64,000 bases of DNA from an uncultured Nitrososphaerota archaeon (GTDB taxonomy: Archaea > Thermoproteota > Nitrososphaeria > Nitrososphaerales > Gagatemarchaeaceae). Positions 30,452 through 55,215 of the stretch are shown piece after piece. The stretch's first letter is position 1, and each line of letters starts with the position of its first letter. The stretch covers positions 1 to 64,000 of the forward strand of contig CAVRAG010000007.1 in assembly GCA_963718895.1 (NCBI GenBank), read 5' to 3'. The notes under the pieces are model-generated. The model made no database searches. It had not been told where the DNA came from and saw only the letters and a list, made by a program, of their open reading frames with translations. The translations under genes and the position numbers were made by a program.

Positions 30452-30467
30452 ATGACCAATGCGTCTT

Positions 30468-30487: not shown

Positions 30488-30628
30488 CAGATTGACTGGG
30501 TTGGCGCTTTGCCTACCACCTACCTAGAATTCCCAGCCCTGCTGCGCCTCGCGCCGAGGCCCATTACCTCATTACGAAGGCGCGCCCTGTAGGACCTGGA
30601 GACCTCTATCGTAGTGGTCGGAATCTCG

Positions 30629-30694
30629 GAGATGCTCTGGACCGTCCACGTAGAGAACGGGATAGCCAAGGAGATCACTCAGATAGTCGGCTAG
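30629..30694 (+). repeat. Direct repeat, copy 2 (orphan 3' end of the 128-aa gene)
   Basis: Encodes EMLWTVHVENGIAKEITQIVG*; 59/66 identical to 23974-24039. Confidence 0.9.
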
Positions 30695-30853
30695 GCCGTC
30701 GATGGCCGGCGGTCTCGGGAGGTACCGGTCCGCGGGGCGGGCTCTTCTTCACCATAGACGGTCATGAAGCGAGTGCGACCATCGTCCTGTTATACTTGGT
30801 ATATTATAAAAAGACATAAGTAGTAGAACAGACCAACACCGAACGAGCGAATC

Positions 30854-31054
30854 ATGACCAAGGCACTCGTGAAATCCAGACGGGTCGGCGGCTCCATCGT
30901 GATTAGCATCCCCAAGGAAGTGACCGAGCTAGAAGGTATACGCGAAGGCGAGCTGATTGAGATAGACGTCCACAAGGCGAGGAGAGATTGGTTCGGGAGC
31001 TTGAAGGGCGTCGGACACTTCGCAAAGGAAGACGAGCTGGACACTCATGACTAG
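30854..31054 (+). CDS. vapB: AbrB/MazE-fold antitoxin
   Basis: SRRVGGSIVISIPKEV...GIREGELIEI. Confidence 0.9.
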   Translation: MTKALVKSRRVGGSIVISIPKEVTELEGIREGELIEIDVHKARRDWFGSLKGVGHFAKEDELDTHD

Positions 31055-31436
31055 GTACGTGGTCGATTCCTGGGCGTGGATGGAGTATCTGGAGGGAAGC
31101 AAACCGGGCGAGAAAGTGAGGCTTCGGATAGCTGACCGCGGGAACGAGATATTCACGCACGTCGTCTCCGTGGCCGAGATTGTCTCCAAGGTTCGGAGAA
31201 AGGAGAGAGACACGGAAGCCGCGTGGAACGCGATCACCAGCAACTCGAAGATGTTCCAAATCGACGAAATTGCGTCGAGAGACGCGGGTCTCCTTCATGC
31301 CGCCATAAGGTCAAAGAACTCTAACTTTGGTTTGGCCGACGCGTTCGTCCTGTCGGCCGCGCGGAAGGTGGGCGGAAAGGTGTTGACGGGAGACCCCGAC
31401 TTCAGGGGCCTTGAAGACGTCGTGATGATAGTTTGA
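31047..31436 (+). CDS. vapC: PIN-domain VapC toxin
   Basis: YVVDSWAWMEY, AEI, GLADAFV and LTGDPDF. Confidence 0.92.
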   Translation: MTRYVVDSWAWMEYLEGSKPGEKVRLRIADRGNEIFTHVVSVAEIVSKVRRKERDTEAAWNAITSNSKMFQIDEIASRDAGLLHAAIRSKNSNFGLADAFVLSAARKVGGKVLTGDPDFRGLEDVVMIV

Positions 31437-31504
31437 GGTTGCTCGGTAAGTCGTTACCTCCATGCAGGCAGTCATCAGCGGCGCGCAGATTTGAAGGCCG
31501 TCCG

Positions 31505-31936
31505 CTACTTGTCATCCAACGCCTCAAAGTATCCCCTCCCGACCACGTCCAACGAGCGGCCTCCGAAGCTCCTTTCGTCGTAGGTCGCGAGGCTTCGGAT
31601 TCTCATACTCTCCGCGAGAACCATCGTTGTACTGTCGGTCAGGCTCAGAAGCTCAGCCTCGAGGAATAAACCCATGGCCCGGGTTCCGGTCTTTTCATCA
31701 ACGAAGATCTCGGTGATACCCGACGCCTTGACAAACGCAGATAGTGCTCGCTCCGTCATTCGCCCTAGTCTGGACCCGAACAACACTGTCGACTCGACGA
31801 ACACGAAGCTGGACGTGAAGGGTCGGCTCCATCTGCCTTTCAGAAGGTAGTAGAAGAGCGCAAGAGAGTCAGGGTGGTGGTCCTCGCGCTCGTCGTGGAG
31901 GGCCTCGAAGACCTATGTGTCGACCAGAACGGTCAA
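31505..31936 (-). pseudogene. PIN-domain toxin with an in-frame TAG at codon 8
   Basis: TTG start gives MTVLVDT*VFEAL..., continuing in frame to LSLTDS...LATYDERSF; TAG at 31913-31915. Confidence 0.8.
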
Positions 31937-32196
31937 TGATTTTCCTGCTCACGAGGCGCTCGCGCTACCTCGTCGTCGACGTTCTCCGAGATATTCCCGC
32001 CGGCCGAAGCAGTGTGCCTCAAGGTTTCTCTGAGCGCGGCGAGATTTCCTACGAACTTCTCATCCTGCTCCTCTGCAGCTGTGACCGCGATCCGTAATGC
32101 CTCGGCCATGGACTGCACGTTAAGCCGCTTGGCGAGAATGCTAAGGCGCTCCTTGTCGGACTTGGAGACCCTTATCGTGGTGCTCAATGCAGACAT
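31933..32196 (-). CDS. RHH-type antitoxin
   Basis: STTIRVSKSDKERL...SMAEAL; its stop overlaps the PIN start. Confidence 0.8.
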   Translation of the reverse strand: MSALSTTIRVSKSDKERLSILAKRLNVQSMAEALRIAVTAAEEQDEKFVGNLAALRETLRHTASAGGNISENVDDEVARAPREQENH

Positions 32197-32271
32197 GTAG
32201 ATATTACACAAGCAGACATTTAAGCCCTATACTGGCAACGTTCATTAGCCGGTGAAAGTCTGCGGATGTTC

Positions 32272-32580
32272 ATGACGAGCATCCTCGCCCCGGACGCCTC
32301 CCTGACGTTCCTGGCCGCCATACTAGTGCCGCTCATCCTGGGATTCCTTGTGGGGATAATCGGCAAGGCCGCGATTCGCATCGGGGTCGCAATCGCCATA
32401 ATAATCATAATCCTAATCGCGCTCGGATTCTTGACACCCAACCAAGTGCTCCAGCCCCTGGTGCAGCTGATAAGGAGCGGACCCAGCCTGACGACCAAGG
32501 TCAGCCAGATCGCAGGATATCTGCCCTACTCCTCGATAACCTTCATCGTAGGGTTCGTAATCGGGTTCTTCAAGGGCTGA
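32272..32580 (+). CDS. Small membrane protein (FUN14-like pattern)
   Basis: LGFLVGIIGKAAIR...GFVIGFFKG. Confidence 0.7.
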   Translation: MTSILAPDASLTFLAAILVPLILGFLVGIIGKAAIRIGVAIAIIIIILIALGFLTPNQVLQPLVQLIRSGPSLTTKVSQIAGYLPYSSITFIVGFVIGFFKG

Positions 32581-32582
32581 GT

Positions 32583-32846
32583 CTAGAGCAGCCAGTCCTT
32601 CGGTGGGCCGTTCCCGCCGGCGCAGTGCACCTCGCCCGATACCCTGCGGATGAACGAGGGGCAGGCGAAGCAGACGAGGAAGTTCACCTCGCTCTTGACG
32701 ATGGGGCAGTCGACCGCCTCCTTCTTCATCCTGGATATCATCTTGGGGCTCGCGCCGCCCTTGAGCTCCGCGCTCACCACCTTCGGTACCTTGTGGGGTT
32801 TCTGCGACTGGTAGATCTTCACGACGAACTTGGTGTCAGTGGACAA
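32583..32846 (-). CDS. Small Cys-containing conserved archaeal protein
   Basis: 87 aa from TTG; EAVDCP...VCFACPSF...VHC. Confidence 0.7.
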   Translation of the reverse strand: MSTDTKFVVKIYQSQKPHKVPKVVSAELKGGASPKMISRMKKEAVDCPIVKSEVNFLVCFACPSFIRRVSGEVHCAGGNGPPKDWLL

Positions 32847-32892
32847 GCTGGGGGGTGCCCTCACGTGAGGGATAAAAGACTTGGTGACGGGC

Positions 32893-33696
32893 CTAGATGG
32901 GTAGCCCTGCCGACTGCGAGCCTGATGCCTCCGCTTCCGCCGCCTCCTGAGCCCGGGAGCCATGCCGGAGGACGTTGTTCATGGTATCGCGGCCGTCCCG
33001 CCAGGCGGCCTTCTCCGAGTCCGTCGCCCTTCCGACAACGATCTCACAGAAGCCGTTTCCGAGCGCGAAGCACCTGCTCTCGTACACGTAGTGCTGGAAC
33101 CCGAAGACGGCGTCGGCTATGCCCTTGCAGACTCCCATTATGAAGCGGCAGCTGTCGGTCCGCTCGGCGCTCGGGTTTCTGGTCGCGCAGAAGACGCAGT
33201 CATGCACCCTGACCATGACCCTGGACCCCTTCGTTAAATCTCCAGAGAGGGAGAACTTCCCCCATCCGGCCGACTGGCCTAGGTGCTCGAAGTACGACGC
33301 GAGATGGTCTGGATCGTCCGTGACCAATCGGTAGTCGAGGGCCGTGGCCCGCCCGTAGGAATAGCCCATCTCAAGGAGGAGTGGCGATGCGTCCTTCATG
33401 AAGTAGGCGAGAAGGTCCTGCTCGATGAGCGCCCATGCACGAGCGTTGAGTATGAAGACGCGCCTGTTGGTGGGCGTGAACAGTACGGCGCCCTTCTGCT
33501 CGTCCCACCTGTAGAGCTCGCCCGGGCTTCCTGGCGGACGCCAGGGATGCCTACCCGGCACGGGGCTTCCGGCAAGGTTGCCAGCGACCATTCGCTCGAT
33601 GAGCTCGCTCGGGGAGACACCTTGGTCGGCGGCAATCCTGCTCAGTCTGTCGCGCTCCGCCTCCTCGAGCTCGATGGCGAGCGAGACCCGTGCCAT
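32893..33696 (-). CDS. RHH (CopG) + V4R domain protein
   Basis: N-terminal RHH (RLSRIAADQGVSPSELIE); V4R motifs GWGKF, CRFIMG and ESRCFALGNGFCEI. Confidence 0.85.
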   Translation of the reverse strand: MARVSLAIELEEAERDRLSRIAADQGVSPSELIERMVAGNLAGSPVPGRHPWRPPGSPGELYRWDEQKGAVLFTPTNRRVFILNARAWALIEQDLLAYFMKDASPLLLEMGYSYGRATALDYRLVTDDPDHLASYFEHLGQSAGWGKFSLSGDLTKGSRVMVRVHDCVFCATRNPSAERTDSCRFIMGVCKGIADAVFGFQHYVYESRCFALGNGFCEIVVGRATDSEKAAWRDGRDTMNNVLRHGSRAQEAAEAEASGSQSAGLPI

Positions 33697-33828
33697 TTCT
33701 CGACCTTGAGGTCCTCCTCTAATTGCCGTAACGTTTGCACATGAGCTCCAAAGGTGTTCTTTCTGCGTTCTTGTGGCACATCCGAACACAGCAGAACACA
33801 TTTATTCAAGAAGGCGCCAAGTGGATTC

Positions 33829-34350
33829 ATGCGAAAGAGCGTCACCAGGACGCTTAGAATCGACGAGGTCCTCGACAGGTCAATCCAGCGGATAGCCACC
33901 GACGAGAACCTGACTGTCAACTCCCTCGTTAACAGGACCCTCACGAAGATGATCGAGTGGGATCGGCCTGCGGAGAAGGTCGGGTTCGTCTCCGCGTCAC
34001 CGACCCTCATGGGCAGGCTGCTCTCCGAGAGGGACGGCGAAGCTAGCGAGGAGCTGGGGCGCTGGGCGGCTCGGGAGGTCTTCCTGCCCTTCATACAGTA
34101 CCTCTTCGGTGAGGTCTCCGTCACGACTGTACTCCTCTACTTCAAGAGAGCTTCAGGATACGGACAGTTCGCCTTCGACGAGACCGGCGACTCGGGCAAG
34201 CGCATCCTCATCCTGAAGCAGTCCCTCGGTCCGAATTGGACGCTCTACTATGATGGAGTCATGAAGGAGATATTCAATGAGACGATGGGAAAGGAGCTCG
34301 CCACGGAGTGCACGAGTGATATGCTCGTCGGAAAACTGGCCACCTCCTGA
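33829..34350 (+). CDS. RHH + V4R/HNOX-like ligand-binding regulator
   Basis: VTRTLRIDE...NLTVNSLVNRTL...EWD, then EELGRW and LGPNWT. Confidence 0.7.
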   Translation: MRKSVTRTLRIDEVLDRSIQRIATDENLTVNSLVNRTLTKMIEWDRPAEKVGFVSASPTLMGRLLSERDGEASEELGRWAAREVFLPFIQYLFGEVSVTTVLLYFKRASGYGQFAFDETGDSGKRILILKQSLGPNWTLYYDGVMKEIFNETMGKELATECTSDMLVGKLATS

Positions 34351-34353
34351 GGG

Positions 34354-34860
34354 TCAGGAGACGAACGTGGTCGACGGAAAGACGACAACGTCGTGTATCC
34401 GGAAGAGCTCAGCCAAATCCGGAAGCGGCAGGGAGGGAAGACCTCTGTTCCTGAAGCAGCAGACGACGGTCAACTCCTTGTGCTGGTTGATGTTCCTCTC
34501 GGCGCCCATCACGCGGCCGAAGGACCCGTAGCAGAGGTGGGCCCAGTCCCCGATCCAGAGCCATTCGTCGAAGCCACCTGAGATGAATCGGTCCCTCGCA
34601 TCGTCAAAGAGCCCGATGAAGTTCTGCAGGGAATCGGAACCGCTCTTCATGAGCACTCGTGCGTCCGCGACCAGGGTCTCCGCGCTCCGCGACAACCTCT
34701 TCTTGTCCTTGGCAGGATCCGCGCTCAGGACGCTCAGGAAATCCGTGCGGCGATCGCAGGCTTGAAGATAGGGCTGAAGCAGTCTGAAACGCTCGTTCTC
34801 ACTTGCGTACAGCAGGAGAACGTGCGCCCTGTGCGCACCCGGTGACTTGGCGCGAGGCAC
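34354..34860 (-). CDS. MEDS-domain sensor protein
   Basis: HVLLLYASENE...PYL at the N-terminus and TVVCCF...IHDVV at the C-terminus. Confidence 0.65.
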   Translation of the reverse strand: MPRAKSPGAHRAHVLLLYASENERFRLLQPYLQACDRRTDFLSVLSADPAKDKKRLSRSAETLVADARVLMKSGSDSLQNFIGLFDDARDRFISGGFDEWLWIGDWAHLCYGSFGRVMGAERNINQHKELTVVCCFRNRGLPSLPLPDLAELFRIHDVVVFPSTTFVS

Positions 34861-34934
34861 TCTCTCATAATCGTGTGACCTAGCTTTTCAACCTATGCCA
34901 TCGCCCAGACCACGGTGAGATGCGATAGCGCAAT

Positions 34935-35336
34935 TCATCTCGAAGGTTTGGTCTCGGAGGGGCTAAGGCTGATCGAGAGGACCGCATTCATCTGGGGCAT
35001 CCCCTTCATCCGACCTAGGAAACCCACAAGCGAGTATCCGATGAGTCCGTACTCCTTCCGGAAGATGTCGAGGATCATGTCACGCTCCGTCCCCTCGAGA
35101 ACCCTCGCATAGCCCTGCATCCACGGGCTGGCCCATTTGCCGCTCCTGTCGCACTCGATAACCCGGACGTTGGGGTTTGATCGCACCCGCTTCACCTTCC
35201 AGGAGTCGGGGTCGGTACGGACGTAGACCAGACCATCGTGCTCTAGCGAATTCAGCAGCGTCTGCTTCGCCTCCCCGCTGTCGGTGTATGATTCCATGAT
35301 GATGTATCCGCGTCTTGATAGTTGTGCGGTCACCAT
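34935..35336 (-). CDS. PPOX-class (putatively F420-dependent) split-barrel oxidoreductase
   Basis: YVRTDPDSWKVKRVRSNPNVRV...GYARVL...KEYG. Confidence 0.8.
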   Translation of the reverse strand: MVTAQLSRRGYIIMESYTDSGEAKQTLLNSLEHDGLVYVRTDPDSWKVKRVRSNPNVRVIECDRSGKWASPWMQGYARVLEGTERDMILDIFRKEYGLIGYSLVGFLGRMKGMPQMNAVLSISLSPSETKPSR

Positions 35337-35394
35337 GGTCCGTCACCGCTTCAGCCCCAGCGCGCACGCTGCAGCCCGCATCATGACTGTGCCT

Positions 35395-35673
35395 TCACGG
35401 ACTGGTTCCCCAGTCCATTCCCACCCGTCTCCAACCTCTCCTAAACCCCCAGACGACCCACATCAGCCCGATCAGCAAACCCACTACGAGCAGCGAGGCC
35501 AACGTGACCACTATGTTCTGAAACAGGCTGAAGCGGCCTGACCAGAGGAGGGTGTAGGCTAGGATGAAGACCAGCCAGGCTATGGCGCCGAGGATCGAGG
35601 CCACGATGGGGGCGAGCGGGCCCCTGTAGTTTCCTGGCCTGGAGCTCTCCGGCGAGGCTTGGGAACCAGACAT
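35395..35673 (-). CDS. Small two-TM membrane protein
   Basis: IAWLVFILAYTLLWSGRFSLFQNIVV. Confidence 0.7.
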   Translation of the reverse strand: MSGSQASPESSRPGNYRGPLAPIVASILGAIAWLVFILAYTLLWSGRFSLFQNIVVTLASLLVVGLLIGLMWVVWGFRRGWRRVGMDWGTSP

Positions 35674-36015
35674 GAGAACGACGACCCCCGGGTCGTATTA
35701 AAACGGCGGACACGATTCTCGGAATTGAGAAACATGTCACGGTTCCTCAACGTCGCAGCGGGCACCCGCGGGTCTCGATCGCCAGGAAGCGGGCACGCGG
35801 CGCACACGGCGAGCGTGGATGAGGAGACCGAAACTCTCGCAGCTCGTTACGCCCTAGGCGGAGGCGTTTCAGACCCGCCGTCCAGTCCCGGCACCGGATC
35901 GGTCGAGAGGGTGGTGGTAACATAGGGAGGCGCGCTTGACCTGTACTCTCCCTACATAGGGTAGTTTCAGTTCACGTTTATAGTGGAGGGTCGGCGGCGT
36001 TCCCTGTGTAAGAGG

Positions 36016-37325
36016 ATGACAGAACATTCGTCTAGAAGATTCATGTTTAGTCTGATAATCGGCCTGCTCTTGGCTGTGACCTGCGTCCCATTCGTTCAGC
36101 GCGCCCTGCGGCGGCGAGCACTCAGACGACCAGCGGGATAATCATACCTCTGTACGTCTACCCTGGGTCCGTCTGGACCACCCTGCTCCAGGAGAAGCAG
36201 GCCAACCCCACCGTCCCGATGACGGTCATCATCAACCCCGGAGACGGCCCCGGCGTGAAGCTCAGCTCAACCTACGCCACATGGGTGGTCAACCTGCGTG
36301 CAGCCGGGATCAACGTCCTTGGCTACGTCTACACCAGCTTCGGCGCGAGGAGCGCAAGCTCGATAAAGACCGACATCGCGACATACAAGAGCTGGTATGG
36401 CATCAACGGCATCTTCGTCGACGAGATGTCGAACAAGGTGGGATATGAGTCGTACTACACCGCCCTCACCGCCTACGCTCACTCCGAGGGCTTCCCACTC
36501 GTGGTCGGGAACCCGGGGACCTCGGTCCCTCGTCCTTCTTCGGGACGACCGACGTGGTGCTCGCCTTCGAGAACCCGGCCCTCCCCACTATGTCTACGCG
36601 ACCACGACGGCGGGCCAGCCCAAGAGCGAGTTCGCGGTCGTTTCATACGCAATCCCGTCCCTCTCGATGTCCTCCGTCAGCATGATGGCCAACTACGCCT
36701 CCTACATCTATGTGACCAACGGGATCAACCCCGACCCGTACACGGCCCTCCCGTCCTACTCTCGACACTGGTCTCTGACGTGAAGACGTTCCTCTCGACG
36801 ACCACCCCCCTCACGGTCCAGGCGGCCGACGTCAATGGGAAGGCTGTGACCGGACTCTGGACGACGGTGAGCCTGAACGGCAACGTGGTCGACGAGGGCT
36901 ACACGCCGCTCTCCTTCCTGGGCACGACGGGCGACAAATACGCCGTCTCCGTCCCCAGCTTCCAGAGCTCAACTTCAAGCACTGGCAGGACGGGAGCACG
37001 ACCCCAACGAAGACGGTCACCCTTTCGGCGTCGACGGCGCTCACCGCGACGTTCTCCGTCGCCTACTCGATCACGGTCAAGTCGGTGACCTCCTCGGGCG
37101 CGGCGCTCACAGGAATGCGGGTCTACGTCAAGTCTGGCGGGAACACCCTCGACGCCCACGTTCACCCCCACGACCTACTCGGGGACCCCCGGAGTGGTGT
37201 ACACGGTCTGCGTCAACAACTACCAGAACCTCGTCTTCAGCCACTGGGACGACGGGACCACGAGCTCCTGCAGGACGCTCACGCTCTCCGAGAACGTCCA
37301 GCTGACGGCAACCTACAACACCTGA
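36016..37325 (+). CDS. Secreted Spherulin-4 (GH135) protein with C-terminal Ig-like repeats (frameshifted)
   Basis: Signal peptide, IIIPLYVYP, IINPGDGPG, VLGYVYT, GIFVDEM, VGNPGT, AFE and PYTALPSY; GYTP/FSHW repeats. Confidence 0.85.
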
Positions 37326-37389
37326 CGCGGGTCACCCCCTTTCGACTCAGGGACAAGCTTGACCAGCCGATCCAGGGACCGCGCTCCGC

Positions 37390-40360
37390 CTAGCCCGAGG
37401 AGCACCCGTTGGTGCACGTGTACCACACGTCGAGGCTGCTCCCGGCAACGACCTGGATAGGGTCGGTCCGCGTTGCCGTCGCCCCAATGGTCGAAGATGA
37501 CGTCGTGGGTCGAACCGTGGCAGCTGTCGCAGTCGTCAGCTCGAAGGATGTAGGTGGCGCCTGAAGTGAGGCCGGGGAACGTGTACCCGTCCTCGTTGGA
37601 GAACCCGTCGCGGATCAAACATGCCTCCCGAGCTGTAGACGCGAAGTACATCGTCGCTCTCGGGCCCGTCCCGGCCGCGCAGACGGTGGCGAAGCAGGGG
37701 CTCCAGTAGGACGCCGGCACCCTGTGGGCGTAGACCGTTATCGTGGACACGCCGCCGTTGTTGCAGTCGTAGACCGCCGTGAAGGACTGGTTGCCGCTGA
37801 CCGGCGTGAATTGCACGGGCACGTCGGAGTCCGTGCTGGACCAGTTGCTGAAGGTACAGCTCCCTCCCGCGGAGGCCGGACCCATAGGACTGGCCCACGG
37901 TCGTCGGGAAAGTCACGGCCGTCGACCCCGTCGCAACCGTGGTCCCTGCGGAGTCGAGGAGGGCAATCGGGTAGCCGGAGATGGTCCTTCCGTCCTGGTC
38001 GACGGAGACTACGGTGACGTCGGAGGTGCAAGAGTACGTGGCCGTGAAGGTGACCGCCGCGCTCGTCGCGGTGAACGGACGCGGGTCGGTCGTGACGCCG
38101 TCGGACCACCTGCTGAAGGTGCAGCTGCCGTAGCTCTCAGCTAGCACGCTGTACGCCTGTCCCACTGTCGTGGGGAAGGTCGTGGGGGTGAACCCCGAAG
38201 CGACGGCCGTTCCGCCCGAGTCGTAGAGGGCCGCGTAGTAGCCGCTGATCGTCGCCCCGGCCTGGTTGACCGAGTCGATGGTTGCGGTGGATTTCGTCGT
38301 CCGCAGCTGTAGTCGGCCGTGAGAGAAGCCGGGGCGGTCGCGGCCGTGAAGGTGCGAGGGTCGCTGGTCACCCCGTAAGACCAGTTGCTGAAGGTGCAAC
38401 TGCCGTAGCTCTCCACTCGCACTCCGTAGGTCTGGCCGACGGTGGTGGTGAATGCGGCGGGCGTGTACCCTTCACGACGATGGTCCCGTCCGAGGCGTAG
38501 AGAACGGCACGATAGCCGGTTACGGCCGCGCCGTTCTGGTCGACCGAGTCGACCGTGACGCTCGAACTCACCGTGCCGCAGTCGTAGACCGCTGTGATCT
38601 GCGTGTTGCTCGATATAGAGATCGGTCGTTGGGCCGATGTGCTGCTCGTGTCCGCCCAGCGGGCGAAGCCGCAGCTTCCATAGCTTTCGGCCTGGACGAT
38701 GTACGATTGCCCGTCGTCCAGGGTGAAGGTGGCAGGCGTGTAGCCCCTCGAGACCAGGACGTGGGCGGAGCTGTACAGGACAGCCTCGTAGCCCGTTATC
38801 GTCTGGCCCCCGGTGTTCTGGCTGTCCACCGTCAGCGACGACGTGGTCGTCTGAGATGACGGGTTCAGGGCGTAGATTGTGGCGTTCGCTGCTGCGAAGA
38901 GGAGGCCGTCGCCGGCCGACGGGGTCGTGAAGTGTTCGACGGTGCCCAGTGACGTGCTGTAGAGGAGAGAGCCTGTCTGCGGGTCGAGGGCGTACAGCTT
39001 CCCTCCGGGGACGGACCGTCCAGACGGCTCCGGCGGCTATTATCGGGGGACCGGCGAAGAGCCCCGTGTAGTTCCAGAGCGAGGTAAAGGTCGGATGTGC
39101 CCCCGGATGGAGTTGGAGCGCATCGAGCCCTCCGCCGCACGGTACGTAGATGACGCCGTTGGCGAACGACGTGGCGCCCCAGGCGCCGTAGGGCCACGGG
39201 GCGTTGACCGCACCGCAAACCGGCGCGCTGAAGAGCTGGCCACCTATCCCGCCGAGGTCGGAGGCGTTCAACAGGTAGCCGGTGTTGTACTTGCCCATGG
39301 TGAAGACGAGGTTTCCCGGCAGCAAGGTCGCGCCGGTGTTCCCGAGGTCGAGGTCGTTGGTGTTGGTGTACTGCCAGTTCGTCTGGGCGAAGTAGTTCGC
39401 CGAAGTGTCGACGAAGGAGAGGTGCGGGGTGAGCTTGATCACGGCGTTGCCGAGGTCGAACGTCTGGTTGTCGCTGTCTCCGGTCACCATGTACACGCTT
39501 CCCGACGCTTCCACCGAGACCCCTTCGGGGGCCCAGACGTCGCCCTCGGGCCTGGACGGAACGTTGTACGCGGACTGCTCGCCGGCCCCAGTGGATGACA
39601 TCGCGATGTCCCACCCCGTCGGGCCCTGCGTGAAGCACTCCCACGAGAAGCCCCCGAACGGGACGTACACGAGCCGTCCGCGAGTGCGAGCGCGCCCGTT
39701 CCTCCTGGGGGAGGTAGTTGAATCCCTGGGCGGCTATGGTGGACCGCCAAACCTGCTGCCCGGTGTTCAGGTCGAGCCGAAGAGGATGTAGCCGCTGTTG
39801 CTGACCAGCGCGGCGGCGTCGATCGTGCCCGACGCGGGGTCGATGACCGGGGTCCCGGTGATGCCGATCGTGGGCTTGATGTCGGGCCCGTTCTGGTTGT
39901 TGTTGCAGGCGTAGGGCGGCTCCACGCTGTCGGCGGGGGTGCCGAGATTCGTCGACCAGGCGATCGCGCCGGTCGCCGCGGTCAGCGCGTAAACGTTGTC
40001 GTCCTCGGTCGCCACGTAGACATAGCCGCCGTAGTAGAGAGGCTCCGCGTAGACCGCGCCGACGACCGTCGCCTCCCAGCTGGCCGACGGCGATGAGATT
40101 GCGGGGAGGGAAGCCGGGTACCCATCGGGAGTATTGTCGTAGTGATAGGTGGTCCACCCGTCGCTCGAGGTCGCGGCGCCGGAGGTCGTCAGGTTCGAGA
40201 CCGTCGCACCCTGCGAAGGTCCGGTGTCGGGAGTCTGTCCGCGGCCGGACGCTGCGAGCGCGGCGGGGAGGAGCGAAGGCACGAGGAGCAGGATGGCAGT
40301 CAGGGCGACGACGGCTAGCCCGTAGCTATGGCGGCGATGGAGAGAACGCGCTGACGGCAC
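37390..40360 (-). CDS. Secreted PQQ-like beta-propeller protein with about 4 disulfide Ig-like repeats (frameshifted)
   Basis: WTTYHYDN, VYAEPL, GITGTPVID, DLDLG and HFTTP; repeats of GY/FTPxTF...ESYGSCxFxxW...YxC. Confidence 0.8.
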
Positions 40361-41255
40361 CTTTAACGAACAGACGCCGGGCGGGCGAACTTGAGCCTAG
40401 CGGTGGATTCTTCTGTAGATAGCTCAGGCGGAGTCCCTTCGGTGCGCGTGTACCCTGCGTCGCGGTAGGGGGTCGCGGCCGAGAACGCGAGACGGTCGTG
40501 GTGAAGAATGAGGGCACGGACCAGTACGGGTGGGGCGAGACCGCGTTGGTCAGGTAGACGTAGCGGGCGTAGTGGGTGATAGAGCTCAACGTCGCGAGGC
40601 TCGGAGATGAGACGCCGTACGATATGACAGCGAAGTCATCTCGCGTCTGGCCCATTGAGCACGAGCTGAGCCTGGAGGTCGTCGGCAGGCCGGACCGCTC
40701 GTAGATCACCAGGATGCTGACTGTGCCGACGTATGAGATGGGCACGCAGGTGCCGGGGTTGCCGACGACCGTCGCCAGTCCCAGAGACTTCGCATAGCTC
40801 GTCAGCGAAGCGTAGTAGGACTCGTGTCCGACCGTGCTGGGCATCTGGTCGAGGAAGATTCCGTTCACGCCGTACAGGCTCTTGAACTTGGCAATGTCGG
40901 CCCTCACGGAGCTGGCGCTCCTGGCCCCGTAGTCTGTGTAGACGTAGCCGACGACGGTTATGCCCACCGACATCAATCTGTTGATCCACGTGGCGTAGTT
41001 GGACTCGCGGGAGACGCCGGGACCGTTGCCCGGGTTCACTACGGCGATTACCGGCACATGCGGGTTGGCCAGCTTGTCTTGAATCACCACGTTCCAGGAT
41101 GAACTGGGATAGGAGTAGAGCGGTATGATTAGGCCCCCGGGGTTATAGTTCTGGGTCGATGCTGAAGCGGAGGACAGCGCCGGGACCCCGACCAGCAGCA
41201 GTAGTGCCAGCACGAGCAGATAGTGGAACGTTCTGTTAGAAGAAGATGGAAACAT
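40326..41255 (-). CDS. Secreted Spherulin-4 (GH135) protein (3' end uncertain)
   Basis: LIIPLYSYP, VVNPGNGPG, VVGYVYT, GIFLDQM, VGNPGT, IYE and PYWSVPSF. Confidence 0.88.
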   Translation of the reverse strand: MFPSSSNRTFHYLLVLALLLLVGVPALSSASASTQNYNPGGLIIPLYSYPSSSWNVVIQDKLANPHVPVIAVVNPGNGPGVSRESNYATWINRLMSVGITVVGYVYTDYGARSASSVRADIAKFKSLYGVNGIFLDQMPSTVGHESYYASLTSYAKSLGLATVVGNPGTCVPISYVGTVSILVIYERSGLPTTSRLSSCSMGQTRDDFAVISYGVSSPSLATLSSITHYARYVYLTNAVSPHPYWSVPSFFTTTVSRSRPRPPTATQGTRAPKGLRLSYLQKNPPLGSSSPARRLFVKGAVSAFSPSPP

Positions 41256-41501
41256 ATCCTCGTCTCGGGCTTCAACAGAATTGACTATAAAATTCATGTG
41301 AAGGCAGATTACGTAGCGCGTCGACTTCGGACGCGGACATCCGGCTAAGCGTTCGCCTGGCGGCGTCCCGCCCAGTCGCTTCGCCGTCTCCGCGCGCCTC
41401 GGACGCTTTCCATCTTAGCGATCGCGGGAGGCTAGGGTGCCGCTGCAGCCTCCTGAGGCGCCCCTCGTAACGATTCACTGTAACACAATTACGCAAGTCA
41501 G

Positions 41502-42743
41502 ATGAACAGAGTGGAGCCCGGTTCAGCAGAGTGGTACGGAGTGCAGGTGGTTCGAAGCCGCCGGCGGGGACTGGCCTATGTTGCCGCAGTCGCCTTCACG
41601 GCGGTGGTTCTCGCGGCAACGCTCTATCAATCGCTGACGTCCGCCGTCGCCGGGCAATCGAGCGGCAGTGAATCGAGTCTACCGGGGCTGACCTCCCCTA
41701 GGTCGACCGGTACGCTCACCACGGCGCTCACCTCGGTCTCCACCCGGGCTTCGGGTTCGACCACGGCAGTCCCGTCCATCCTGGCAGTGAACCAGGAGAG
41801 GTCGGGTCTTGTCGCGTCAGACTCCCTGACCACAGGAGGGACGGGCCAGTGGATATTCTACGGCAGCGCGCCGGTTGAAGGCGGGATCGGAACGTACAGC
41901 GAGAACGGAAGCGGCCTCTATCTCGGGGTACTCGCCCGCACCGCCGGCACATACGCGGGGTTCTACGCGAGAATGTCCGTGAACGCGGATGTCTTCAATG
42001 CTGTCATCTCTCTTCCTGTGAACAGGACCGCAGGCGACGTCAGGTTCAACACGGGCCTCTACGTCCAGACGGGGGGCCCCGGCGTCACATATGTCACCTG
42101 TGACGCGGGAGTGAATTCGAGGGGCTACTCCTGGGTCGTCGACAGGGCCGTGGGGGACGCGAAGCAGGCGGAGACGATTACTCCTCTATGGTTCGAAGCG
42201 AATCAAGACCAGCCGCTCACCAGGGACTGCACCATAGTGACGAACGGACAGAACCTCCTCGAGGTCTATCTCGACCACAAGCTCGTCTACTCCAACTCCT
42301 CCATGGACCTGGGATACCAGTATCCCCTGAGCGCCCGGGTCGAGGTGCAGTCCAACGACAACTCGACGATGCGCTTCGGCCGATACTCGGACTTCTACGC
42401 GGCGACGTCCGACAACGTCACAGTGACCCACGCGCCGGTGGGAGCGGTCGTTGAGCTCGTCAGTCCGTCGGGCCGAGTCTACTTCAGCAAGACCGCGGGG
42501 GCGTCAGGGACAGTCCAGATCGGCCTGGCGGCGTTCGCGATGCCGCTGATCGCCTATGTGCGCGTGGTCTACCTTGGACGCACGCTCGCGACGAGCCGGC
42601 AGCCGGCGGAGGTATGGGGAGGCGATGCCTACACGTTCGGCCCGCTGGGTGTCGTGGCCCTCCACCGGTCAGGGCGCGGCCCCGAAGCCGATCCTAGGGC
42701 AGCCGCACGGGCTCCGCAGAGCTGGAGGAAGAGATCCCCTTAG
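41502..42743 (+). CDS. Membrane-anchored extracellular beta-rich (lectin/ConA-like?) protein
   Basis: N-terminal TM helix, Ser/Thr linker and aromatic-rich beta-strand pattern; the fold is an inference. Confidence 0.6.
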   Translation: MNRVEPGSAEWYGVQVVRSRRRGLAYVAAVAFTAVVLAATLYQSLTSAVAGQSSGSESSLPGLTSPRSTGTLTTALTSVSTRASGSTTAVPSILAVNQERSGLVASDSLTTGGTGQWIFYGSAPVEGGIGTYSENGSGLYLGVLARTAGTYAGFYARMSVNADVFNAVISLPVNRTAGDVRFNTGLYVQTGGPGVTYVTCDAGVNSRGYSWVVDRAVGDAKQAETITPLWFEANQDQPLTRDCTIVTNGQNLLEVYLDHKLVYSNSSMDLGYQYPLSARVEVQSNDNSTMRFGRYSDFYAATSDNVTVTHAPVGAVVELVSPSGRVYFSKTAGASGTVQIGLAAFAMPLIAYVRVVYLGRTLATSRQPAEVWGGDAYTFGPLGVVALHRSGRGPEADPRAAARAPQSWRKRSP

Positions 42744-44242
42744 CGGTCCCGTTGACGACGTACGCGTAAAGTGATCGTGTCGTCGATCGGCGACCAGGTT
42801 GATCGCCTGGTTGCTGGTCCCGTTCGCCCACGACGAGAACGTGTAGGTCTTGAAGCTCTGCATGACGATGGTGTAGTTGACCGTACGGGTCGCGACCCAG
42901 GTGAACGGGGTGTACCCCCCGGCGACCATCGTGCCGTTCGTCCACACGGTCGTCCAGATTCCGACGACCGGGATGTTGTTCGTCTCGTTCGTGAGCACCG
43001 TCACCACCGAGGCGTTCGAGCTCGACGTGCTCGAATACGCGACGAGGGTCGTGGCCTGCTTGGGCGAGAGGCTGACCGTCCGCGCCTTGCTCCCGCCGCT
43101 CCAGTGGTCGAAGACGTACCCCCCGTCGTCCCTCACGGTGACCGTGACCTTCGACCCTGAGATGACCTGGAACGTGGCCGGGGCATGGGCCGTGGTGCTC
43201 GTCCCGTCCGGCTGGACGACCGTCACCTGGAATCCCCGGTCCACGGAGGTCCCGTTCGGCGTCAGCGTCTCCACGGTCACGGGGACCAGGGACGAGAGCT
43301 CCGAGGCGAGCTGGTCGAAGTAAGGGGGGAGCGACCCGTAGGGAAAAGGCCTGACCCCGTTCGTGATGAAGAGCGACCCGACGTAGTCGGAGGCCGCTGC
43401 GACGTAGTAGGGATTCGATCGAGGTCTGGTCATAGACGAGAACGCGAAGTTGCTCTTGGTGTAGTTCGAGTGCCATCCCCCACGTATCGAGAGCGCGGGG
43501 AGGTGGGAGTTCTCGAAGTAGCCGATTGTCGTGACGGACCCCATGAAGTAGTAGGGGATGTCAGTACCCGAGTTCCCGAAGTCGGTGGTGTAGCCGAGGG
43601 ACTTGATGTAGGCCGTGAGCGCGGAGTAGTAGGCGGGGATGTACGCACTGGTCGAGCTGTACTCCAGGTTGTACATCTGGTCGAGGTAGATCCCGCTGAC
43701 GCTGTACCACCTGTGCCATGCCAGTATATCGCCCTCGACGGAGGGGACTGGTCTGTCCCCCCACCCCGTGGGGACGTACCCTAGGACCACGACCCCCGCC
43801 GACCGCATCTCGACCAGGCCGGCGCCGTAGGTCGAGTTAGCCACGGGTCTGGGTCCGCCGGACGGGTTGGCCACCACGGTGATCGCGAGGCGGGGTGCGC
43901 GGCCTTCTCCGCGATAATCTGACCCATCTCTGTTAGCGAGTAGTTCGTGAACATAGGGATGATCACCCCCGTCCCGAGCTGCGGGGTGCTGGACGAGCCG
44001 TTGCTCGTCTGGGTGGAGTGGCTCTGGGACCCCGAGGATTGCGTCGAGACGGTCTGGGTCGGCGGCGACCCTCCCTGGCTGGAATGGGAAGAGACCGTGA
44101 CGCCAGTGTCCGAGACGGTCGAGCTCGGCTGCGGGGACGGACCGAAGGCCGAGGTGCTGGAGAGGACGAGGACCGCGATCACCGCCACGGCCAGGGAAGC
44201 CTGGACTGCCCTGTTCCTGAGAGGCCCGGGGACGGTCTTCAT
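42740..44242 (-). CDS. Membrane-anchored Spherulin-4 (GH135) protein with Ig-like repeats (frameshifted)
   Basis: VIIPMF, VANPSGGP, VLGYVPT, GIYLDQM, GYFEN and PYGSLPPYF; FDHW/GYTP repeats. Confidence 0.85.
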
Positions 44243-44284
44243 ACGGCCTTGCCACCCATTGCAGCTGCGGGTGCCGACCGCCAC

Positions 44285-45941
44285 CTACTTGCTCGTATCC
44301 AGACCATAGACCGTCTCACCTGCCGCACAGACTATCAGCCCGTCGGCCACAGAGGGCGTAGCGAAGTGGTCGGGCGAGCCCAGGGCCACCTTCGTGACCA
44401 GTTTCCCTGTCTGCGGGTTCAGCGCGTAGAGGGTACCGTTGGAGATGTCGAAGGTCCAGACGGCCCCCCCTGCGACGATGGGGGGCCCGGCGAAGCCCCC
44501 GCTGAAGTTCCAGAGTGAGGTGAAGGTCGGGTCTGCGCCGGCCTTGATCGAAAGCGCGCGCAGGCCGTTGGCGCAGGGCACGTAGACGACGCCCGAAGCG
44601 TACGCGGTCGAACCCCAGGCGCCCGAGGGACAGACCTGCGAGGAGAAGAGCTCACCCCCGACTCCGCCCAGATTCGAGGAGTTGAGCAGGTAGCCCACGC
44701 CCTCCTTCCCGATAGAGAAGAACTAGGTTGCCCGGAAGCAGAGTCGCCCCCGTAGTGCCGAGGTCCATGTCGTTCGCGTTGAGGTAGGTGTAGTTCGCGT
44801 CGCCGAAGTACCCGACGACCTTGAGGTCAGGCGTGAACTTGATCACGGCGTCGGAATAGTCGAACGGAGGAGACGTCTGCTGGCTGTCTGACGTCACGAC
44901 GTAGAGGAACCCCGAGCCATCGACGGAGATCCCCTCCGGAGCCCAGATGTCTGCCTCGACCGTCGCTGGGACTTCGTAGCTGTGCTGAGTGCCGTTGCCG
45001 TTCGCGGAGACGCCGACTATCCAGCCGTGTGGCGGGACACAGGCCCAGGAGAACCCGCCGAAGGGGACGTAGACGAAGCCGTCCGTGAGCGTCAACGCAG
45101 CCCTCTGTTCCTCCCCTGTGGACACGAACCCCGAGGGCGAGATGGGCATGGACCAGCGGATGGCCCCCGTGTTGGTGTCCACCGCGTACAGCTCGTAGCT
45201 GGGCCCGGCGACCATCGCCACGACGTAGAGCGTCCCAGTGGAGGAGTCGATCACCGGCGTTCCCGTAATCCCGATGGTGGGGACGATGTCAGGGCCGTGG
45301 CCGCCGCACTCGAGAGGGGGGACGGTGGCGCTGACCGCTGACCCTAGGTGCCTGGTCCACTGGAGAGCCCCGGTTGCCGCAGAGAACGAGTACTCGGTGT
45401 CGTTCTCGGTCACGACGAAGACAGAGCCGTCGAACGAGAGAGGCTCCGCGTAGACCTGACCGTCGACTTGTGCCTTCCATGCGACTGAGAGCGAGGTCAG
45501 CGTCGGGACCGAGGTGTCGTACCCGTCCCTGGCATTGCTACCATGATAGGTGAGCCAGTATCCGGCCGCGGAGGTCGAGGTGGACGACGTGCTCGTGGTG
45601 CTGGTCGTCGTCGAGGTCGTGCTCGTCGTACTTGTCTCACTCGTCGTGCTAGTTGCGCTAGTAGTGCTAATAGTGCTCGTTACGCTAGTCGTGCTGGTTG
45701 TCCTAGTGGTCGATGTCGTGGATGTCGTGGAGGACTGGATGATCGTCGAGGTTACGTTAGATTCCTGGCTCGATGTCCCGATGGACGAGGTGCTAGAGGT
45801 CGTCGGTGCCGAACCTTGCACGTTGCTCGAGAACTCCGATGATGCGATGACCACGACCGAGAGCACGACCAGAATCGAGACCCCGAGCGCGACGATGTAA
45901 CCCCTCTTCCGTCTGCGCAGGGCTCTATCCCTATCCTCCAT
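44285..45941 (-). CDS. Membrane-anchored PQQ-like beta-propeller protein with Ser/Thr stalk (one frameshift)
   Basis: TM helix, S/T tract, WLTYHGSNARDG, VYAEPL, GITGTPVID, DMDLG and HFATP; paralog of 37390..40360. Confidence 0.85.
45570..45810 (-). repeat. Low-complexity Ser/Thr-coding tract
   Basis: Imperfect 9-nt units encoding TST/TTS. Confidence 0.8.
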
Positions 45942-46122
45942 CGCAGGCGTACCCTGTCTGAGCCTACCTGCGTTGTGTAAGCTTCCTCGGGTAGAATCAT
46001 CCATAATCGGGCGACGGGAAGGCCGGTAGCCTCTGCCGCCATCGTGATGTTCTAGCTAGAAATATTCTGGTCGAATCGGGTCAAGCCATAAATATCACAG
46101 GTGGTCCTTTTTCCCGTGTACC

Positions 46123-46648
46123 ATGGCTCGGGACCTTCGGGATGTCGTCAACAAGATCATGGTCGCGATGAGCGACAGCGAGCCGACCTCTGAGGAGATC
46201 GCGGGGCTCGCTTCTGACCTCGCAACGTTCTTCGACGCGTCCATCGTCCTCGTCTATCTCGGTTCCATGCCGATGACGATCCCTTCGAGCGAGGGTCCCA
46301 TCGGCCACACGGAGATCGCCGCGGCCGTGGAAGCGGTCGACGAGAAGGGAAGGAAGACGCTTGACAGGATGGCGGAGGATCCTGACAGCTCACGGCGTCC
46401 CCGTCAAGTCGCGCGTCGTGCTGGGGGAAAGGGGGCACGCCATAAAGGAGATAATCGAGCAGGAGAAGTGCGACCTGGTGGTCCTTCCCCATTGGCAGTC
46501 GGGCGCGGCCCAGAGGTTCCTCCGGGTCTTCTCTCCCAGCGTCCTCGAGGACGCGACCTGTCCCGTGTTGGTGCTAAAGGGCAGCAGGTGGCTTACCGAA
46601 TCAAGGGCGCCGAGGGAGGGGCCGGCAAGCCCGGCGCAGGGAAGTTGA
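46123..46648 (+). CDS. Universal stress protein (UspA family; one frameshift)
   Basis: KIMVAMSDSE, CDLVVL and SVLEDATCPVLVLK. Confidence 0.85.
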
Positions 46649-46655
46649 CCATCCG

Positions 46656-47080
46656 CTAGGCCCTGCCGCGCTGTTCGTCGACCACGCGGCCAGCGGGGGC
46701 GGGCTTCCTCCCCTCCTGGACCAGCGTGAGGAGCGGGATGGCGAGCGGGACCAAGATGAGGGCCTGCTGGACGCCGTACTTCCTCCGATAGACGTTCCCG
46801 TGGGCCAGTTCGAACGCGACCTCTTCCTTCGCGCTCCCCCTCATGGCTATGGAGACAGAGTAGGCGAGAAGCGGAATATAGTTGAGGCCAAGCAGAATGA
46901 GGTAGGCCCCTATGGAAGTGGTCTCGGCGGTGCGCTGATGGACGAAGAGGAGGAACGCGAGGCCGAGGACGCCCAGAAAGAAGACCCCGAACCCGAACTC
47001 CAGCAGGTCCTGCGCCGCCCGCGGTAGACGATGTCGATCGCGGCCAGCTTCCTGATGTTGATGAACCGCTCGGTCTCCAC
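46656..47080 (-). CDS. Membrane protein (one frameshift)
   Basis: INIRKLAAIDI...EFGFGV...GLNYIPL...RKYGVQQ. Confidence 0.65.
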
Positions 47081-51238: not shown

Positions 51239-52201
51239 TCAGAGAAGAAAGGACTTGTCGGTCTGGGTCGCCCCGGAGAAAGCCTCCCGGAGCGCTCTGG
51301 CGGCATCGCTCCTCCCCTTCGCGCCGAAAGGCAGCGTGAAGAAGCCGTGTATGGTGCCGTCGTAGCGTAGGACCTGGACCGGGACGCCGGCGTCCTTCAG
51401 CCGCGCCCCGTAGGCCTCGCCCTCGTCCCTGAGGGGGTCGTACTCGGCGGTGAGGACGATCGCGGGGGGAAGCCCGGTCAGGACCTTCGCCCTTAGGGGA
51501 GACGCGTATCCGTTCTCTCCTTCGCTCGGCGAGATCAGGTAGTGGTTCCAGAACCACATCATCTCCTCGGTCGCCAGCCCGTATCCCTCCCCGCAGGTCA
51601 GGTAGGACTTTGTGTCGAAGGAGTGGTCCGCGACCGGGTACACCAGGACCTGGAAGGCTATCGAGGGGCCCCTGCGGTCCCGTGCCATGAGGCAGACCAC
51701 CGCGGCGAGGTTGCCGCCAGCGCTGTCGCCAGCGACCGCTATCCGCGTGGGGTCGACGTCGAGCTGGGCGGAGTTCTCCGCGACCCAGAGGAGCGAGGCG
51801 TAGGCGTCCTCGATAGCTGCCGGGAACTTGCTCTCGGGCGCGAGTCTGTACCCAACCGAGACGACGACGCACCCCGCCGCGCTAGCGAGGGTCGCGCACG
51901 TGCGGGCGATGTCGGGCTCGTCGTGGCTGCCGAGGACCCACCCGCCTCCGTGAAAGTAAATCAAGACTGGAAGGCTCGCCCACTCCCTCGCCGCGGGCGT
52001 GAAGACGCGGACCGGGATCAGCCCTGCGGGTCCCGGGAAGGTGAGGTCCCTCGTCTGCACCCCCGCCGGCGGCTCCCACGGGAACATGTTCTCGTAGACC
52101 TTCGAGACGTCCCGGGCGCCCTGCGGCGTGAGGCCGGCGAGGGGAGGGGTGTTCACCTCGGCGACCCGCCGGAGGAACTCCTTCGAGCTCTGGTCGAGCA
52201 T
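51239..52201 (-). CDS. Alpha/beta hydrolase, HSL-family (family IV) esterase
   Basis: HGGGW, YRLAPE, GDSAGG, DPLRDEG and HGF. Confidence 0.95.
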   Translation of the reverse strand: MLDQSSKEFLRRVAEVNTPPLAGLTPQGARDVSKVYENMFPWEPPAGVQTRDLTFPGPAGLIPVRVFTPAAREWASLPVLIYFHGGGWVLGSHDEPDIARTCATLASAAGCVVVSVGYRLAPESKFPAAIEDAYASLLWVAENSAQLDVDPTRIAVAGDSAGGNLAAVVCLMARDRRGPSIAFQVLVYPVADHSFDTKSYLTCGEGYGLATEEMMWFWNHYLISPSEGENGYASPLRAKVLTGLPPAIVLTAEYDPLRDEGEAYGARLKDAGVPVQVLRYDGTIHGFFTLPFGAKGRSDAARALREAFSGATQTDKSFLL

Positions 52202-52207
52202 CGATGA

Positions 52208-55214: not shown

Positions 55215-55215
55215 T

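Follow-up and report, generated by a model that had tools for sequence, protein, structure and literature searches.

The 64,000-nucleotide stretch analysed here (below: the window; contig CAVRAG010000007.1, positions 1 to 64,000, assembly GCA_963718895.1) comes from an uncultured archaeon of the Gagatemarchaeaceae and carries, at 36016-46004, six genes for three Spherulin4/GH135 proteins, two PQQ-type propellers and one ConA-like jelly-roll protein. With moderate confidence, we consider this locus to be the accessory cell-surface arm of a Pel/galactosaminogalactan (GAG)-like exopolysaccharide system of Nitrososphaeria. This own-matrix interpretation is favoured because in relatives the same enzymes sit inside a polymer-synthesis cluster. 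It would then be an archaeal version of systems of the Pel/GAG kind, visible here through its accessory arm only.

The genome assembly amounts to 3.13 Mb in 11 contigs, with completeness of 80.5% and contamination of 5.4%. Its small- and large-subunit rRNA fit archaeal Rfam models and hence point to an archaeal genome, whose nearest named relatives are metagenome-assembled genomes (MAGs) of Nitrososphaerales and Gagatemarchaeum. An earlier note on this DNA, made from the letters alone, had described an archaeal locus of six exported or anchored surface proteins with GH135, PQQ-type propeller and lectin-like domains, and had seen no glycosyltransferase or deacetylase gene in the window. The archaeal origin agrees with the rRNA matches, and the six genes lie at about the positions given in the note, the end of the locus falling at 46004 or 45941 depending on whether the first or the second ATG of the last gene is taken as its start. 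The domain calls are upheld by PF12138, by PF13360 and by an AlphaFold model with its structural matches, and neither a glycosyltransferase nor a deacetylase gene was found in the archaeal part of the window.

Six surface proteins and their folds

Gene models (Table 1) were obtained by reading the three frames against intact orthologues. All six proteins are predicted to be exported or N-terminally anchored, since each starts with basic residues and then a hydrophobic segment, whose best 17-residue Kyte-Doolittle mean is 2.2-3.2; in four of the six a Ser/Thr-rich linker comes next. The start of Sph_C abuts the stop of PQQ2.

Table 1. Features of the window, with the frame changes placed in the genes of the locus
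Feature	Position	Strand	Description	Frame changes (basis)
Sph_A	36016..37325	+	Long-form GH135, ~436 aa; anchor, Spherulin4 barrel, two C-terminal B-repeat-like beta-sandwich domains	6: near 36090, 36535, 36596, 36760, 36960, 37158 (three-frame reading)
PQQ1	~37390..40360	-	~990 aa; anchor, 8-bladed propeller (PQQ-type repeats), ~4 B-repeat-like domains, Cys-rich C-terminal domain	7: near 39765, 39690, 39012, 38470, 38300, 37880, 37440 (three-frame reading; tblastn to intact 820-aa L002 orthologue)
Sph_B	40326..41297	-	Short-form GH135; signal/anchor and barrel only; open reading frame (ORF) open over 323 aa	
Lec	41502..42743	+	Transmembrane helix 22-46, Ser/Thr-rich linker, ConA-like jelly roll ~101-306, C-terminal beta-sandwich ~305-381	0
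Sph_C	42669..44284	-	Long-form GH135, ~538 aa; anchor, Ser/Thr linker, barrel, two B-repeat-like domains	1: near 43900 (tblastn to 540-aa orthologue L081:14689-16308)
PQQ2	44285..46004	-	~570 aa; anchor, ~100-aa Ser/Thr-rich stalk, 8-bladed propeller	1: near 44710 (tblastn to orthologue L083:1343-3031)
M-box magnesium riboswitch (RF00380)	12868-13036	-	154.7 bits	
Bacterial-type genes	within 1-20000		IS110 transposase, lipoprotein signal peptidase II, DinB, frameshifted isoleucyl-tRNA synthetase (IleRS), type-I polyketide synthase (KS-AT-DH)	

Sph_A matched Pfam PF12138 with E = 1.4e-24 in the ORF 36219-37085 and with E = 1.6e-33 in the longer frame 36051-37085; Sph_B did so over profile positions 2-237 of 239 (ORF 40329-41297, E = 2.1e-40), and Sph_C with E = 1.3e-22 (ORF 42672-44255), next to a match to Flg_new_2 (E = 0.0012). 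The matches of Sph_A and Sph_C are partial owing to frame changes. Sph_B was also matched to Sph3 in the PDB (5c5g, E = 4.4e-13), and its D150 and E200 align with the Asp/Glu acid pair of that structure, whose members are 56 residues apart. This spacing fits Asp166, reportedly the number given to the catalytic aspartate of Sph3 by Bamford in 2015. In a passage of PMC12054363 the catalytic pair of Sph3 is given as Asp196/Glu222. Both D150 and E200 are invariant in an alignment of 36 sequences (A1) and in one of 17 closer sequences (A2), and the pair is kept in Sph_A (VDEM...FENP) and Sph_C (LDQM...FENS). Judged from their sequences, the three barrels belong to the GH135 family and have its catalytic Asp and Glu residues.

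Two forms of GH135 are present, a short one of ~260 aa (Sph_B) and a long one (Sph_A and Sph_C), the extra domains of which are two C-terminal beta-sandwiches with a weak match to the divergent InlB B-repeat family. Sph_C is 53% identical (tblastn) to its 540-aa orthologue. The closest GH135 homologues come from MAGs of Nitrososphaerales, Gagatemarchaeum, Nitrosotalea and Nitrososphaera, followed by soil Actinomycetota and Chloroflexota. It should be added that GH135 has six copies in the genome, of which the window holds three and contigs C1, C4 and C8 one apiece.

Both propellers matched PF13360 (PQQ_2), PQQ1 at 39770-40360 with E = 7.3e-08 and PQQ2 at 44655-46004 with E = 3.5e-09; a partial match to PF01011 (E = 1.2e-4) was weak and below the cut-off. 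The first 150 aa of PQQ2 are 50% Ser plus Thr, and the protein is 61-69% identical in two frames (tblastn) to an intact orthologue (L083:1343-3031). It was this orthologue, not the window protein, on which the structure model was built (predicted local distance difference test score, pLDDT, 80.5); it comprises an anchor helix, a disordered stalk and the propeller. The best structural matches were YxaL (Z 37.5, root-mean-square deviation (rmsd) 2.4, 338 aligned) and BamB (Z 35.6), and the only PDB sequence matches were to one BamB repeat. According to the model, PQQ1 and PQQ2 are BamB/YxaL-like 8-bladed propellers. Like YxaL of Bacillus and BamB, which are cofactor-free, they have eight blades of PQQ-type repeats; an N-terminal anchor with a Ser/Thr-rich stalk, and in some of them B-repeat tails, set the archaeal proteins apart. 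PQQ-dependent dehydrogenases came next with Z ~32, nearly as high, and cofactor binding would be compatible with the fold. A third propeller is encoded on contig C8. The Cys-rich C-terminal domain of PQQ1 (37440-37880, minus strand) gave no Pfam match and has 59-79% identical counterparts in the thaumarchaeal loci L017 and L013.

Lec (ORF 41502-42740) matched neither a Pfam or NCBIfam family nor a PDB sequence, the NCBIfam run being on the Lec proteins of relatives, and the ESM Atlas returned unnamed clusters only (score <=0.90). Its AlphaFold model (pLDDT 82.5) places a ConA-like jelly roll at residues ~101-306, with Z 13-16 to many ConA-like members, lectins among them. The top matches (Z up to 16.0, rmsd 3.2, 184 aligned) were tied between GH16, a GH43 C-terminal domain, CBM66 and PL7/PL20, and Foldseek gave a probability of 1.00 with template-modelling scores of 0.5-0.6 on the target. 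The modelled fold of Lec is thus the ConA-like jelly roll, which serves enzymes and binding modules alike. The family numbers 75 homologues; those with a name come from Thaumarchaeota or Nitrososphaerales, and fusions to FN3 or cadherin-like domains occur among the homologues. Its alignment (A3) has invariant residues that include C243, T247, N248, N251, E281 and Y299.

GH135 and PelF-type clusters in Nitrososphaeria

PF11997, the N-terminal domain of the PelF-type glycosyltransferase of family GT4, was used as the marker of the synthase in two samples, one of 60 relatives plus this genome and one of 150 genomes drawn evenly from the class, each at least 80% complete. Among the 61 genomes PF12138 was present in 16 and PF11997 in 13, and every one of these 13 had PF12138. 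Class-wide, PF11997 was found in 7 genomes of 3 families and 6 genera, PF12138 in the same 7, and neither in the remaining 143. In both samples together GH135 accompanied the PelF-type gene in 20 of 20 genomes. The two genes lie 2-7 kb apart in 11 of the 13 relatives, the other two having them on separate short contigs, and 2-6 kb apart in 6 of the 7 class genomes. GH135 without PF11997 was seen in this genome (80.5% complete), G015 (71%) and G022 (54%), and in no sampled genome of higher completeness than 80.5%.

Gene order was seen directly in nine loci (L080, L082, L085, L094, L096 and L098-L101). The cluster of one relative, G013, runs as follows: TFIIB paralogue, long GH135, ATP-grasp, 551-aa membrane protein, NAD-dependent epimerase, GT4 with DUF3492, small helical-repeat protein, GlmS, KaiC/GvpD-like ATPase, response regulator, Lec, PIG-L deacetylase, WbqC and histidine kinase. 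The six class loci that were inspected have a common core of the small helical protein, the PelF-type GT4, the epimerase and a PelG-like protein, with at least one GH135 alongside; ATP-grasp was found in three of them, and GlmS, the KaiC-like ATPase, PIG-L, WbqC and TFIIB are variable. The GT4 of relatives matched the NCBIfam PelF model NF038011 over its full length with 122 and 151 bits (cut-off 100). The ~550-aa membrane protein beside it has 9-11 hydrophobic segments; 5 of 9 members matched Pfam PelG (PF16933) at E <=1, the best at 1e-4, no other family recurred, and 25 of 30 ESM Atlas matches were PelG clusters (score 0.94). Going by these matches, the protein appears to be a distant relative of PelG. 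The epimerase is GalE-like, below the equivalog cut-off. In relatives the cluster often includes a second GlmS. By analogy, GH135 and the PIG-L-family protein may fill the hydrolase and deacetylase roles of the cluster.

Recurrent companions in the PelF clusters of relatives (L079, L080, L082, L085, L094 and L096) are the TFIIB paralogue, the KaiC/GvpD-like ATPase, the ATP-grasp enzyme (NCBIfam 'carbamoyl phosphate synthase-like protein', 321 bits) as well as WbqC, a set that hints at regulation of its own for the cluster and at a polymer that carries a non-sugar substituent.

The GH135 copies of the window were placed among those of relatives in a quick maximum-likelihood tree of 23 hand-chosen rows. 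Sph_A and Sph_B fell into a clade with the PelF-cluster copies of G013 and G021 (Shimodaira-Hasegawa-like approximate likelihood ratio test support 96). Sph_C was paired (support 100) with a G013 copy that lies beside a propeller, ~27 kb from the PelF gene of that genome. There, ~15 kb past the cluster, the Sph_C-type GH135 and a PQQ2-type propeller are neighbours as in the window, 1.2 kb apart.

Own-matrix processing was one of two functions that the earlier note had offered; the one it preferred, an attack on foreign biofilm, finds less support here, and the linkage of GH135 to PelF-type genes in both samples strengthens the former. Under foreign attack or scavenging, secreted GH135 would cut fungal GAG or bacterial Pel in peat and soil, either for food (carbon and nitrogen) or to loosen the biofilms of competitors, and a dual role is conceivable. 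Such a use, which was proposed for Gagatemarchaeaceae in a part of Sheridan et al. 2023 (PMC10640624), would suit the six anchored or secreted copies, the lack of a synthase in this assembly, the extra beta-sandwich domains of the long forms, which could be binding modules, and the occurrence of near-identical DNA in public runs from peat and soil metagenomes, both fungus-rich habitats. It is harder to reconcile with the strict company of GH135 and PelF-type genes in sampled genomes above 80.5% completeness, with the absence of both from most of the class and with the usual distance of at most 7 kb between them. Moreover, neither at 36-46 kb nor in the immediate flanks was there a sugar transporter, a kinase for N-acetylgalactosamine (GalNAc) or galactosamine (GalN), a deacetylase, a deaminase or another amino-sugar catabolic gene, so that the hallmark of degradative polysaccharide utilisation, hydrolases linked to uptake or catabolic genes, is not seen at the locus. 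The PelF cluster also occurs in small class genomes of low guanine-plus-cytosine (GC) content (34-46% GC, 1.5-2.0 Mb). From size and GC, we presume that these may be ammonia oxidisers, in which scavenging seems less likely. On balance, we hold a foreign target to be rather unlikely.

The partners of GH135 differ in reach. The Lec family was found in 13 of the 61 genomes, this one counted; GH135 was present in 12 of these 13, and in 7 the two genes are at most 5 kb apart. Lec adjoins GH135 again in two distant class genomes, G125 and G172 (loci L095 and L097), and is a broad partner of GH135. The propeller is a genus-level partner: its five closest orthologues (49-55% identity) include three at most 5 kb from GH135 (G002, G013, G017), one 18 kb from GH135 and 5 kb from Lec (G021) and one unlinked (G009), while all 12 more distant matches outside the window are unlinked. 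The clustering that the earlier note had proposed to look for is therefore conserved widely for GH135 with Lec, and for GH135 with the propeller only among the closest, same-genus orthologues. The closest counterpart of the whole locus, the 13-kb contig L002, repeats a long GH135, a short GH135, a propeller with B-repeats and Lec.

These patterns also bear on whether the locus is a loose neighbourhood of unrelated exported proteins in a variable region, with no common substrate. The propeller family is very large in the phylum (2029 matches at E <=0.001 among 8000 candidates scored), a propeller orthologue stood at only 1 of 77 GH135 loci from named genomes (tblastn, 1e-5; many of these loci are short), none was seen at the class-level PelF loci, the gene order of the window differs from that of L002, and a lower-GC stretch with AbiEii, PIN and ATPase genes precedes the locus. 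Against chance assembly speak the orthologous pairs that recur, PQQ2-Sph_C here and in G013 and Sph_B followed by PQQ1 here and in L002/G002, together with the recurrence of Lec beside GH135 in near and distant genomes and the presence of GH135 in nearly all Lec-bearing ones. We judge a gathering without common substrate to be improbable.

Under the own-matrix interpretation, the synthase would make a GalNAc-rich, perhaps partly deacetylated, alpha-1,4-linked polymer. This composition is proposed from the specificity of characterised GH135 and from PelF/Pel chemistry, as given in parts of PMC12054363 and PMC9135694. The GH135 enzymes would cut the polymer outside the membrane, like Sph3 on fungal GAG and the PelA hydrolase domain on Pel, and thereby release the nascent chain, set its length or clear it. 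At the cell surface, the polymer may be bound or arranged by the ConA-fold protein and the propellers, with the B-repeat-like domains as stalks or additional binding modules. Synthase-dependent exopolysaccharide systems usually bring their own hydrolase or lyase, and Sph3 was reportedly found by Bamford in 2015, as cited in PMC10640624, to be required for GAG synthesis.

Several observations weigh against this interpretation. The locus itself contains no synthesis gene, and neither does the contig L002. The search for pel-like synthesis genes that the earlier note had suggested turned up PelF-type clusters in relatives and none in this genome: the PF11997 scan gave no match, and tblastn with the relatives' PelF, PelG-like, ATP-grasp, PIG-L and WbqC proteins gave one partial, generic GT4 match only, so that for this organism the link to synthesis is drawn through homology alone. 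No homologue of PelA, PelD or Agd3 was identified, and Pfam and NCBIfam scans of the relatives' clusters returned no match to PelA (GH166 plus deacetylase), PelD or PelB/PelC; archaea would not be expected to have outer-membrane export parts. The similarity to PelG is weak and under the Pfam cut-off, the co-occurrence counts overstate independent events as the genomes are related, and some propeller adjacency could be incidental given the size of that family. Six GH135 copies exceed the need for processing and would also suit a degradative, nutritional role. Finally, the chemistry of an own-matrix polymer in these archaea is a prediction from genes, by analogy with characterised systems.

As the three GH135 genomes without the synthase core are the least complete, we infer that the core is missing from an 80.5%-complete assembly and not truly lost. 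A GT4 with 54% identity to one in the same placement in G013 is found close to the GH135 copy on contig C1. Contig C1 starts 388 bases upstream of a KaiC-like gene (G000:C1:388-1737) with 35% identity to the KaiC-like gene that follows GlmS in relatives, and the missing core could lie past this start. The KaiC-like gene at 20471-21370 of the window was considered as an orthologue of the cluster-linked one and rejected, the best match being the gene on C1 (35% identity).

Frame changes and flanking DNA

About 16 frame changes were placed across the 10 kb of the locus, as the earlier note had anticipated in calling for the frameshifts to be polished. The 3' end of PQQ1 can be placed only within 37313-37392, and the tail of Sph_B past ~40485 is probably out of frame, since homologues stop there, at ~260 aa. 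Nonsense substitutions were not seen among the lesions, which are all indels, and the two in-frame stops of PQQ1 sit in a short out-of-frame stretch flanked by two indels.

The frame changes were checked with Logan contigs from three public runs of peat and soil, whose similarity to the stretch is at least 99% (depth 2-4, with 8 to 19 of 30 bins covered per run; one run is possibly the window's own sample). Most of the longer contig pieces listed differ from the window by at most 3 letters. Relative to the window, contigs carry +4 at 36596 and -1 at 37158 in Sph_A, +2 at 39011/39013, +1 at 39673 and +1 at 39694 in PQQ1, and indels with a net length change at 40452, 40481 and 40484 in Sph_B. 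Where the frame arithmetic was checked (36596, 37158 and 39011/39013), the exact transition predicted was restored at all three sites. One contig record has 7 extra letters between 44007 and 39106 with no joint reported, and may be a chimera of paralogous parts. No RNA run was listed as matching the stretch.

Since short-read contigs carry indels at the predicted sites and restore the frame where checked, the frameshifts are probably consensus errors of a long-read assembly and the genes intact. The opposite view, that the frameshifts are real and the genes are pseudogenes of a locus decaying after loss of the synthase, could draw on the high local density of frame changes, with only one noticed in the flanking archaeal 47-64 kb, and on an assembly without the synthase core. 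It fits poorly with lesions that are indels throughout, with frames restored by the contigs within their shallow and partial coverage, and with genes elsewhere in the window (IleRS, pseudouridine synthase, asparaginase and an ABC ATPase) that are split in the same way. We regard decay as very improbable, and in annotation the frameshifts of the locus should be handled as assembly errors, not as marks of pseudogenes.

A frameshifted universal stress protein gene (46123-46659) adjoins the locus; such a gene also stands beside GH135 on G000:C1 and in G013 (L081, L092). The DNA directly upstream (20000-36000) is of lower GC (54-60%) and is probably a variable or defence island; among its genes are those for an AbiEii toxin, a PIN domain, a KaiC-like ATPase and an archaeal ATPase_2, besides many ORFs that match no family. 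The first 20 kb differ from the rest of the window in GC (65-74% versus 54-66%) and in their bacterial-type genes (Table 1); contig C7 appears to open with contaminating DNA or a chimeric join, a recent transfer being less likely. Downstream, 51885-64000 carries a Dpp/Opp-type ABC set of the peptide type, with two ATPases (one frame-split), two permeases and two family-5 solute-binding proteins, next to an aldo-keto reductase, an esterase, a short-chain dehydrogenase/reductase and flavoenzymes. Other genes separate this set from the locus, to which it appears unrelated.

Relation to known systems and significance

With Sph3 of Aspergillus (5c5g) the archaeal proteins share the Pfam family, the barrel, the conserved Asp/Glu pair and a membrane anchor, and the GH135 genes of relatives lie beside those of a sugar epimerase and a glycosyltransferase, as sph3 does. 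After the catalytic Asp, Sph_B and Sph_C have Gln where Sph3 has Glu, a position that varies among homologues. The fungal cluster consists of uge3, gtb3, agd3, sph3 and ega3, as listed in a part of PMC7229062. It differs from the archaeal counterpart in several respects: the latter belongs to an archaeal host, includes long forms with B-repeat-like domains and up to 6 paralogues per genome, has a PelF-type cytoplasmic GT4 as partner instead of a Gtb3-type one, and is without an identified homologue of Agd3 (CE18) or Ega3 (GH114).

The bacterial Pel system comprises PelA-G, with the epimerase PelX in some operons. Clusters of the archaeal relatives resemble it in a GT4 that passes the PelF model, stands beside a distant PelG-like membrane protein and is accompanied by a GalE-like epimerase, a hydrolase of an endo-alpha-1,4-galactosaminidase family and a deacetylase candidate. 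They depart from it in that the hydrolase is GH135 and not the GH166 domain of PelA, the deacetylase candidate is of the PIG-L family and not the CE4-like domain of PelA, no PelD/PelE, PelB or PelC was recognised, and ATP-grasp, WbqC, KaiC/GvpD-like ATPase and TFIIB paralogue are additions; the window itself holds none of the core genes.

Parts of Bamford et al. 2020 (PMC7229062) describe bacterial operons, putatively for exopolysaccharide, in which GAG-type enzymes are combined with a glycosyltransferase of the cytoplasm and a multi-spanning membrane protein, as well as Spherulin-4 genes in some operons of Actinobacteria; the word 'archaea' does not occur in its main text. The actinobacterial loci L068 and L077 likewise have a DUF3492-type GT4 near GH135. 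Those operons are defined by Agd3 (CE18), usually with GH114, whereas the archaeal clusters have no recognised Agd3 and include the ConA-fold protein.

The earlier note knew of no described archaeal system of this make-up. Such a statement has to be narrowed, as parts of Sheridan et al. 2023 (PMC10640624) report, for Gagatemarchaeaceae, multiple GH135 genes with signal peptides and, for the ancestor of Gagatemarchaeum, the acquisition of GH135, both read there as fungal cell-wall degradation. Gene family and archaeal family are probably the same there and here, and the closest named GH135 loci found by us include Candidatus Gagatemarchaeum stordalenia and peat Nitrososphaerales MAGs. The parts of Sheridan et al. 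2023 cited here make no mention of PelF-type linkage, the ConA-fold partner or propellers. Among the literature matches listed for GH135 in archaea, that work and its preprint were the only relevant ones, and no PelF-type system in Thaumarchaeota was found in a literature search whose coverage mostly excluded subscription journals.

In a wider and more tentative proposal, to which we give somewhat less than even credence, Nitrososphaeria, including those with small low-GC genomes, make a Pel/GAG-like, GalNAc-rich exopolysaccharide with a PelF/PelG-type synthase, with GH135 instead of PelA as the obligatory extracellular hydrolase and with the previously unnamed ConA-fold family as a dedicated matrix partner. 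If true, this would give Archaea their first Pel-type matrix system, of which the window displays the accessory arm, expanded to three hydrolases and genus-specific propellers. Cationic GalNAc polymers of the Pel/GAG family, which bacteria and fungi are known to have, would then reach into a third domain, and two named families, that of the ConA-fold protein and that of the BamB-like propeller, would join them as partners. The GH135 genes of acid-soil archaea, published as 'fungal cell-wall degrading', would become self-matrix genes. If they serve the cell's own polymer, they would not be evidence of feeding on fungal cell walls by these archaea, which would change the published ecological inference. 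The matrix make-up of soil and peat Thaumarchaeota is little known, and the PelF-type cluster, matching GH135 exactly in the sampled genomes, offers a concrete candidate that may be approached with existing Pel/GAG tools, such as GalNAc-specific lectins and the Sph3 and PelA hydrolases.

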